Assembly: GCA_964406465.1 (NCBI GenBank)
Contig: CAYORT010000012.1
Location: 7,653-71,652 of the forward strand
Direction: 5' to 3'
Length of the DNA stretch: 64,000 nucleotides
Origin: an uncultured Chryseobacterium sp.
Lineage (GTDB): Bacteria > Bacteroidota > Bacteroidia > Flavobacteriales_C > GCA-002722245
The notes under the pieces are model-generated. The model did not search any database and had not been told where the DNA came from. It saw only the letters and a list, made by a program, of their open reading frames with translations. Every line of letters starts with the position of its first letter. The stretch's first letter is position 1. Below, piece after piece: positions 16,112 to 17,339 of the stretch. A program made the position numbers and the translations under genes.

Positions 16112-16150
16112 CCACTCTTAAATGTAGCACTTACCCAGTTTGTCATCCTA

Positions 16151-16336
16151 TGTTTGTAGAAAATAAAAAATTATACCTACTACAAACAAAAGGGAAAAGA
16201 GAAAGGAAACAAGCAATCATTTGTCATTAGGCATTAAGCCCGTTCAGGATGTTAGTCCCTTTCTCTTTTCAACTTAAACCTGAACAGTTCATGCGGCCAC
16301 GAAGCCTGAATGTAGGATTGATAGGTCAAGTTGAAA
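16151..16336 (+). ncRNA. Predicted IS110 bridge RNA: 5' hairpin, target-binding loop and donor-binding loop
   Basis: 9-bp hairpin 16151-16159/16180-16188; 13-bp stem 16194-16206/16258-16270 enclosing tttgtcat and tcaggatg; stem 16271-16281/16323-16332 enclosing acagttcat and gtaggat. Transcript ends are inferred. Confidence 0.8.
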
Positions 16337-16357
16337 CCCTTCATTAAAAAAAGATCT

Positions 16358-17329
16358 ATGTGTAAATTTACAGGAATCGACATTTCTAAGCAAACAATTG
16401 ATTGTAGTATTTTGAAAGAAAATGGAAAAGTAGTTCACAAAAAGTTAGGCAACAACCACAAGGGATTTGAGAAATTGCTAACTGAGTTGAGCGAAGATAG
16501 TCACGTTGTGATGGAAGCGTCAGGACCGTATTATTTGAAGCTAAGCACTTTTTTGTTTGAGAAAGGAATCAAAGTTTCGGTGGTAAATCCGTTAATCATT
16601 CGTCGTTTTTGTCAAATGCGTTTTCTAAGAACGAAAACAGATAAGAAGGATGCATCAATGATACGAGAGTATGGTGAATTGGAAAATCCAGCGTTATGGG
16701 AACCCGATGAGCCAATGATTCTAAAGTTAAAGCAGCTTAGTACTTGTATTGATTTGTTAGACAAAAGCATTACTGCTTCTACCAATCAGCTTCTTGCATT
16801 TAAAGAAATGCCTGGAACAGATGAAGACTTAATCAAGCAAATGCAATTTATCATTGAGATGAATGAAAAAGAGAAAGAAAAAATGGAAAAACAAATGGAC
16901 GAAATATCAAAACAGTATTACGGAAAAACTTATGAATGCTTGCAAAGTATTCCAGGCATTGGCCCCAAGACTTCAGCAATGTTGATTGCAATTACTGCCA
17001 ACTTCAGTAGTTTTGAACACTACAAACAACTAATTGCATATGTGGGATTAAATCCAAGAGTTTTTGAATCTGGAACCAGCGTAAAAGGGAAAGGGCATAT
17101 ATGCAAGATTGGCACCGCCAGACTAAGAAAAACAATATATTTATGCACATGGTCAGCAAAAAGAACGAACCCTCAGTGTGCTCAGATGTATGAAAGACTG
17201 CAAATGAAATGCAAACCTAAAAAAGTGATTAATGTGGCTATTGCTAATAAATTACTAAGACAAGCTTTTGCTGTAGGAAAAAAATTAGTCCCTTTTGAAG
17301 AAAATTTAAATATTTTAGTTGCAAATTAA
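16358..17329 (+). CDS. IS110-family transposase (bridge recombinase), intact, 323 aa
   Basis: GIDISK, VMEASG and KTDKKDA form the DEDD RuvC-like tetrad. LQSIPGIG and GLNP..ESG.SV mark the Tnp domain with its catalytic Ser. Confidence 0.95.
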   Translation: MCKFTGIDISKQTIDCSILKENGKVVHKKLGNNHKGFEKLLTELSEDSHVVMEASGPYYLKLSTFLFEKGIKVSVVNPLIIRRFCQMRFLRTKTDKKDASMIREYGELENPALWEPDEPMILKLKQLSTCIDLLDKSITASTNQLLAFKEMPGTDEDLIKQMQFIIEMNEKEKEKMEKQMDEISKQYYGKTYECLQSIPGIGPKTSAMLIAITANFSSFEHYKQLIAYVGLNPRVFESGTSVKGKGHICKIGTARLRKTIYLCTWSAKRTNPQCAQMYERLQMKCKPKKVINVAIANKLLRQAFAVGKKLVPFEENLNILVAN

Positions 17330-17339
17330 CACAGTTCAT

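Follow-up and report, generated by a model that had tools for sequence, protein, structure and literature searches.

In IS621, an insertion sequence (IS) of Escherichia coli, a sigma70 promoter is rebuilt across the joint of the right end (RE) and the left end (LE), and a bridge RNA of 177 nt is made from it (Durrant et al. 2024, PMC11208160; Nature 2026, PMC13626964). A 22-bp IS621 donor that lacks the -35 box recombines only with RNA in trans (PMC11208160, PMC13626964), and the genomic copies of IS621 depend on read-through (PMC13626964). Junction promoters (Pjunc) of ISEc11 (IS1111), IS492 and ISPpu9 are cited within PMC13626964 and PMC12288879. Such promoters explain how IS110 elements can be quiet in the chromosome and on once excised, and the only cases in which this has been demonstrated to date involve sigma70 promoters in Proteobacteria. 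Here we describe an IS110-family element in a 64,000-nt stretch of an uncultured freshwater Chryseobacterium sp. (GenBank assembly GCA_964406465.1, contig CAYORT010000012.1, positions 7,653 to 71,652; hereafter the window, whose own numbering is used throughout). With a probability that we put at roughly 0.7, this element appears to carry its own promoter split between its two ends and complete only in the circle. The initial annotation of the window had started from the statement that IS110 circles form junction promoters, a principle that is indeed established for IS621 (PMC11208160, PMC13626964).

The promoters read by the primary sigma factor (sigma-A) of Bacteroidia are composed of a -33 element TTTG and a -7 box TAnnTTTG (Bayley et al. 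2000, as cited in PMC2483708, PMC9330008 and PMC7366714). Outward or hybrid promoters have been reviewed for Bacteroides elements that include IS1186, IS1168 and IS4351 (PMC9330008), and the same review treats the host dependence of promoter formation by ISs in general terms only. Within the literature that we searched, we found no description of a junction promoter in the -33/-7 grammar. The principle is already known from IS621 of E. coli, and it is the promoter dialect alone that is new. The more interesting result is that both halves of the junction promoter appear, from comparison of related elements, to be rewritten with the class of the host.

Architecture of the candidate split promoter

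The left end of the element would supply the -7 box TATGTTTG (16149-16156, + strand), a TAnnTTTG sequence such as the primary sigma factor of Bacteroidia recognises. It begins 2 nt inside the left end, is present in the integrated and circular states alike, and is one of just two + strand TAnnTTTG boxes in 15900-17600. The right end would supply the -33 element, a TTG (17319-17321, + strand) that spans the codons GTT-GCA two codons before the stop and lies 18 nt before the end of the element. When the element is integrated, the nearest upstream TTG is that of GTTTGTCAT, 6 nt before the box, and a search for TTG at 15-24 nt upstream of the box found none. Joining of the two ends creates a junction with the sequence ...TAGTTG CAAATTAACACAGTTCATCC TATGTTTG, which is TTG, a 20-nt spacer (N20) and the box. 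The initial annotation had reported a perfect TAnnTTTG box at this position, no TTG about 20 nt upstream of it in the integrated state, and a TTG in the last recombinase codons that end joining brings to exactly 20 nt before it; our reading of the sequence and reconstruction of the junction agree with each of these.

The spacing must be viewed against the background of the host genome, where TAnnTTTG starts at 5.6e-4 of positions per strand and where, among 3497 such boxes, TTG stands at exactly 20 nt in 2.0% and at 19-21 nt in 8.2%. In one element alone, the TTG spacing is suggestive at best, and conservation is the test. With regard to the box itself, the host TAnnTTTG sequences peak 20-40 nt before long open reading frames (ORFs; 153 sense vs. 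34 antisense), and 12.7% of the host long ORFs have a sense box at -68 to -12 vs. 5.0% for the antisense. In two genomes from other classes (400 kb sampled from each) the TAnnTTTG rate was ~1% without enrichment, with motif counts too few to show a positive sigma70 enrichment in these controls. The host itself thus uses TAnnTTTG upstream of its genes. The N20 spacing equals the inherited sigma70 geometry (TTGACA-N17-TATAAT) and falls within the 19-21 nt range reported for Bacteroides.

Conservation of the junction and its dependence on host class

Relatives of the element were gathered from named genomes, from 400 genomes of the phylum and from multi-copy genomes, and 31 junctions were reconstructed with ends backed by a shared core, by matches of the left donor guide (LDG), and by copy or contig boundaries. 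Elements whose left end was not definable (L043, L046, L047, L053, L058, L062, L063) or was lacking, either because the contig starts inside the element or because the start codon was not found (L038, L051), were left out of this comparison. In 26 of the 31 junctions the TTG precedes the left-end TA box by exactly 20 nt, compared with 2.0% of the host-genome boxes, and this agreement is therefore not due to chance. The arrangement is kept among relatives with 27-57% transposase identity, and the box is identical in all ten elements of the window's subfamily (44-57% protein identity to the window's recombinase). In the integrated copies of the relatives, TTG is found at 19-21 nt in 3/26, which is about the chance level. 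As read from these ends, the elements have the layout of a Pjunc, with the upstream element in one end, the downstream element in the other, and the right spacing only after joining.

The right-end TTG is placed within the last codons (NICF*) in Flavivirga-like elements and 3' of the stop in Chryseobacterium elements. It is kept whether it is coding or past the stop, and is therefore a signal in the DNA rather than a constraint on the protein. Free variation is seen in the 8 nt that separate TTG from CACAG (CAAATTAA, TTTTTAAG, CATATTAA, GAATTTAC and others). One relative (L045) carries a compensating indel, in which the right end is longer by 2 nt and the left end shorter by 2 nt (the box starts 2 nt earlier), so that N20 is preserved.

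The motifs differ between host classes. When elements from genomes labelled Bacteroidia (n=20, including named Flavobacteriaceae, Weeksellaceae and Chitinophagaceae) are compared with those of other classes of the phylum (n=11), in rows that are not independent of each other, the box is TAnnTTTG in 14/20 vs. 1/11 (p = 0.002), the upstream hexamer begins with TTGAC in 0/20 vs. 8/11 (p = 2e-5), and a T precedes the TTG (giving TTTG) in 13/20 vs. 1/11 (p = 0.007). In the eight other-class relatives the upstream element is TTGAC(T/A), and elements of these classes have a plain sigma70 look, such as TTGACT-N17-TATATT (G184) and TTGACA-N17-TATGTT (G256). What was initially called the phylum's own promoter grammar holds for the class Bacteroidia and does not extend to the phylum as a whole. 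On the recombinase tree, six changes of host class are needed, at least three of which are forced by supported branches; one row (L050) is a neighbouring gene on a long branch, which leaves the host-switch count among the other rows unaffected. Close pairs (L036/L037 vs. the window's subfamily, L059 vs. L079, and L056 vs. L054) differ in the expected direction. These comparisons support the view that the motif follows the host class and not the IS lineage, which is how a promoter would behave and is unlike a recombination signal.

We lean, by a modest degree, towards a broader interpretation of this pattern, in which junction promoters are rewritten at each move between host classes. An ancestral TTGAC(T/A)-N17-TATGTT would have become (T)TTG-N20-TAnnTTTG in Bacteroidia and would have stayed sigma70-like in other classes. 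If this is true, the element ends would be a natural and repeatedly evolved read-out of the host's primary sigma-factor grammar, and these ends would also be both a barrier to transfer between classes and ready native parts for bridge-recombinase tools in Bacteroidia.

The junction was also found as DNA in relatives. An exact scan of metagenome contigs for CACAGWTCATCCTATGTTTG gave seven loci, and three of these (L125, L126, L130) are contigs of IS size whose two ends overlap in direct orientation by 127 nt and which are closed across the RE-LE joint, each with TTG-N20-TATGTTTG. Their recombinases share 35-45% identity with that of the window. Closure of these contigs needs reads that carry the junction, either from circles or from head-to-tail tandems. 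For the copy in the window, no circle joint was found among the metagenome DNA contigs (X1-X4) compared with the locus, all of them assembled contigs. The proposal of the initial annotation that the circle junction assembles a promoter of the host's type is supported by this comparative evidence (26/31 at N20, host-class dependence, and the junction DNA of relatives).

A related junction occurs on a TARA scaffold (L128:2220-2330; junction at ~2247 after orientation), where a solo RE-LE joint (GAGTTTGTTTTTAAACACAGATCAT joined to CCTATGTTTGTAATTAG) with the full TTTG-N20-TATGTTTG stands behind an ordinary gene, with no element around it and no recombinase gene on the 4.2-kb contig. Possible interpretations are a relic, a donor-like site and a captured promoter.

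The element, its bridge RNA and the transcripts of the locus

The host assembly comprises 3.13 Mb in 60 contigs with 37% G+C, and a genome search across the 60 contigs found a single copy of the element. The IS (16147-17339, + strand; 1193 bp including the right-hand AT core copy at 17338-17339) contains a recombinase gene (16358-17329, + strand) that encodes 323 aa from ATG, with the ORF open from 16331 and the stop at 17327-17329. The protein matches PF01548 (DEDD_Tnp_IS110; 1.4e-24, residues 15-156) and PF02371 (Transposase_20; 1.4e-24, residues 202-287). This layout, with an N-terminal DEDD RuvC-like domain and a C-terminal Tnp/Transposase_20 domain, identifies it as a bridge recombinase of the IS110 group of the IS110 family.

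Removal of 16150-17342 in silico rebuilds a ~100-nt palindrome that resembles repetitive extragenic palindromic (REP) sequences, in which CAGTTTGTCATCCT is followed directly by GAGGTACCCCGAAGG and the layout is GGGCAATAGTTCCTTCGGGGTACCTCAGGATGAC-loop-GTCATCCTGAGGTACCCCGAAGGAACTATTGCCC. The rebuilt empty site aligns end to end with 16 intact repeat copies in the host genome (at least 16 sites), from which it follows that the element has split the right arm of a REP-like hairpin. The left part of this target (16076-16146, + strand) consists of the left arm (16076-16109), a loop, the left target half TTTGTC (16139-16144) and the core AT (16145-16146), and the right part (17340-17368, + strand) of the right target half CCTGA... 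and the right palindrome arm. The exact ends are ambiguous by 7 nt in this copy, with TCATCCT present at both boundaries. Relatives with differing right flanks (TCAGAG, TACGAGG, TGCGAAC, TCCGTAG and others) settle the ambiguity: at the left boundary the left target (LT) reads LT-...GTC-AT and is followed by CCTATGTTTG of the left end, and at the right boundary RE...CACAG(T/A)TC-AT is followed by the right target (RT). By these boundaries the element begins at 16147 and ends at 17339, with AT as the core, and the same ends had been assumed in the initial annotation. We note that comparing copies in multi-copy genomes overshoots the true ends by conserved target bases, and the ends were refined via the overlap of the LDG and the right donor guide (RDG).

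The REP-like repeat itself (16076-16149 plus 17343-17368; other copies at, for example, C6:105697-105797 and C3:80485-80588) is ~100 nt long and dispersed; its 34-nt arms are highly conserved and its loop varies. The target of the element is found in each arm, in opposite orientations, yet the assembly has only one insertion. Farther along, DNA contigs of two metagenomes show a second copy of the 79-nt stretch 17383-17461, 623 nt further on. Other arrangements were seen around the targets of relatives. One intact relative (L124:75-110) is not flanked on its left by the target predicted from its left target guide (LTG; ..CCGTCAT), and instead by AAACACAGTTCAT, of which 13 nt are identical to its own right end; this looks like insertion or rearrangement at a donor-like half site. 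A related IS110 element occurs five times, in near-identical form, in a stretch of 28 kb (G123:C1:111075-138748; L064-L066). Its target is AAACC(A/G)C-CT-TTGTTATA each time, which points to target repeats that are arrayed locally. In a Flavobacteriaceae metagenome-assembled genome (L022:1200-1300), the target repeat of an element (CGTGACCGTCATTACGAGGAACGAAGCAATCTGCCTAT) is present in three tandem copies, and the element stands at the end of this series.

The left end folds as two stem-loops (fold z = -4.0), with compensatory changes in 14 of 27 consensus pairs across seven relatives. The predicted bridge RNA (16161-16336, + strand) is ~176 nt long. Its 5' end is predicted from the box, which spans -12 to -5 according to the transcription start map of F. 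psychrophilum (PMC9723704), with G at -5, and its 3' end is observed in RNA. The stem of the target-binding loop (16197-16267, + strand) encloses the LTG (16220-16227) and the right target guide (RTG; 16244-16251), and that of the donor-binding loop (16268-16335, + strand) encloses the LDG (16284-16292) and the RDG (16310-16318). The LTG TTTGTCAT is identical to the left flank 16139-16146, and the RTG TCAGGATG is the reverse complement of CATCCTGA. For the donor, the LDG ACAGTTCAT is identical to the right end 17331-17339 and matches the left donor half CACAGTTC with the core AT (17330-17339, + strand), and the RDG AUGUAGGAU pairs with ATCCTATGT with two wobbles. In relatives, the LDG covaries with the right end (ACAGATCAT in Chryseobacterium and L035 elements) and the RTG covaries with the flanks. 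The left end therefore encodes a structured RNA whose guides fit its own target and donor around a shared core, as in the bridge RNAs of IS110 elements.

An Rfam scan of 15900-17600 returned nothing relevant, and its sole match was a chance snoRNA (E = 0.29). The sequence also contains a perfect 9-bp inverted repeat (16151-16159 and 16180-16188; TGTTTGTAG and CTACAAACA), whose 5' arm is most of the -7 box, and formation of the hairpin requires a read-through transcript with its start upstream of the box. The hairpin was rejected as a conserved regulatory stem, being absent from relatives.

The left end is present in 15 riverine metatranscriptomes, in contigs that match the window without a difference. 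These RNA contigs cover the flank and the left end and almost never the recombinase gene, which argues against carry-over of DNA; one contig (X28, 16468-16642) lies wholly within the gene. Right ends fall at 16336/16337 in 6 of the 15 runs, one nt past the last stem pair of the donor-binding loop, and in one case adapter sequence follows, which shows a shared fragment end and not its direction. Only one contig crosses 16336 (16327-16477, depth 2). The end at 16336 is sharp and lacks a U-tract, which points to processing or to a structure-protected end and not to a classical terminator. An antisense promoter was considered and rejected, as no box (CAAAnnTA) is found at 16341-16348. Most left ends are located in the REP arm or the upstream gene (15987, 16011, 16032, 16074-16093), and one contig begins at 16166. 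The integrated copy yields bridge-RNA-containing transcripts via read-through from the upstream gene, and the RNA contigs neither show nor exclude the junction promoter. Some RNA contigs of three runs (X25, X26, X33) continue into a different flank CGGGAAATAAATGAAAAGCAATGAGTAGAA upstream of the REP arm (16079); either the assembly crossed over at the repeat, or these contigs come from a strain whose neighbour gene differs.

Alternative explanations and comparison with known systems

In the mechanism that we propose, the two promoter halves lie 1.2 kb apart in the chromosome, and only REP sequence would occupy the -33 position before the box. Excision as a circle would join the right end to the left end via the AT core and give TTG-N20-TATGTTTG. 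Transcription is predicted to start near 16161 and to yield the ~176-nt bridge RNA that ends at 16336, with recombinase mRNA arising from whatever transcription passes that point. The integrated copy receives low-level read-through from the upstream gene across the interrupted REP hairpin, which may, by analogy with IS621, supply RNA and enzyme for rare excision.

Several observations weigh against this proposal. The -33 element of the host is weak: a TTG at spacing 19 is seen for only 7.5% of promoter-like boxes (background 3.5%), and TTG enrichment peaks at that spacing with none at 20. A global study of F. johnsoniae, as quoted in PMC7366714, recovered no -33 motif. With such a weak -33 element, the -7 box may need no partner to be active in the integrated copy, and the size of any boost upon excision is uncertain. 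The copy in the window has GTTG and not TTTG before the spacer, and its junction also reads as a fair sigma70 promoter (TTGCAA-N17-TATGTT), which makes part of the pattern a matter of inheritance. One Bacteroidia subfamily (L040, L064, L044, L039) has a spacing of 17, and one member lacks both motifs. The assembled RNA contigs, which carry no strand, contain no RE-LE joint of this element, and most of them begin upstream of the box (15987-16093), as expected from read-through and not from this promoter. Most RNA also stops at 16336, before the gene, and a boost of the recombinase is accordingly less certain than a boost of the bridge RNA.

Some of these points would be accounted for if the left-end box, which is intact when the element is integrated, were a complete constitutive promoter, so that excision adds little and the bridge RNA is made equally from both states. 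The rarity of TTG before promoter-like host boxes and the F. johnsoniae data quoted in PMC7366714 fit this explanation, as does the one metatranscriptome contig that begins at 16166 without evidence of a circle. Nonetheless, 19 of 20 Bacteroidia elements have kept the TTG at a fixed distance even as the AC next to it in the ancestral TTGAC decayed, and in 13 of the 20 a T has been gained upstream of the TTG. The kept TTG and the gained T require selection for a -33 element that the circle alone possesses, and for most RNA contigs the start lies before the box, not at it; we therefore regard a constitutive box as unlikely. Still less probable is a scenario in which the two motifs are left over, without activity, from a junction promoter of the sigma70 type and Bacteroidia elements rely wholly on read-through from their neighbours. 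The N20 spacing does fit the TTGACA-N17-TATAAT geometry and not the host optimum of 19, TATGTT is common to non-Bacteroidia relatives, read-through transcripts from the upstream gene occur in several runs, and excision of IS621 needs no more than read-through (PMC13626964). However, the extension of the box to TAnnTTTG and the reduction of the -35 hexamer to (T)TTG are specific to Bacteroidia lineages and repeated on the tree, which argues for adaptation and not decay, and a decaying site would not remain identical in ten elements at 44-57% protein identity.

The conserved ends might also be recombination signals, contacted by the recombinase or the bridge RNA, with an incidental likeness to a promoter. 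The box overlaps the donor site, the first five bases across the core (ATCCT) are paired by the RDG, and CACAG(T/A)TCAT is paired by the LDG. Yet the TTG lies 18 nt from the end and the guide-paired bases reach only 9 nt into the right end. On the left side, ATGTTTG is unexplained by guide pairing: the invariant AGGAT of the RDG pairs only with ATCCT, and in relatives ATGTTTG is not complementary to the RDG flank. The IS621 donor of 22 bp recombines without a -35 box when RNA is given in trans (PMC11208160), and the motifs track the host class across close recombinases (L036/L037 vs. the window's subfamily; L059 vs. L079). We consider this the least probable of the explanations, and a promoter completed by circle formation remains our preferred one.

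If the Bacteroidia version works as proposed, the same logic would have been carried over into a promoter language of a very different kind, and the recombinase tree would place this change on several occasions. This would offer a clean natural experiment on promoter evolution under host switching and a way to read promoter grammar in uncultured lineages from sequence only. E. coli promoters work poorly in Bacteroides and Flavobacterium, and a working junction promoter would provide native expression parts for bridge-recombinase engineering in these genera. The known mechanism of bridge recombination is unchanged by our findings.

Compared with IS621, the element of the window has the same arrangement of a -35-side element in the right end and a -10-side element in the left end, joined across the core only in the circle, and the same TTG-N20-TA geometry. 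Both encode in the left end a bridge RNA with target and donor loops (~177 nt in IS621, predicted 176 nt here), and the genomic copies of both are weakly expressed via read-through. They differ in that IS621 has TTGACA/TATAAT, whereas the candidate here has TAnnTTTG downstream and (T)TTG only upstream, in the grammar of the Bacteroidia primary sigma factor. The core is AT here and CT in IS621, and the target here is a REP-like palindrome. With ISEc11, IS492 and ISPpu9, as far as these are covered in PMC13626964 and PMC12288879, the element would share the assembly of a promoter by end joining in the circular intermediate, and ISPpu9 likewise inserts into REP sequences; unlike the candidate here, those promoters are sigma70-type in Proteobacteria, and none is described in these sources with the -33/-7 grammar. 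The likeness to Bacteroidia sigma-A promoters consists of the perfect TAnnTTTG, a TTG within the reported upstream range, and the enrichment of the box in the host on the sense strand 20-40 nt before ORFs, and the differences consist of halves on opposite ends of a mobile element, a spacing of 20 that is one more than the host peak of 19, and the GTTG of this copy. Finally, IS1186, IS1168 and IS4351 also have mobile-element promoters in the Bacteroides grammar, but these are directed outward into host resistance genes, whereas the promoter proposed here would be directed inward, to the element's own RNA and gene, and would form only in the excised element.

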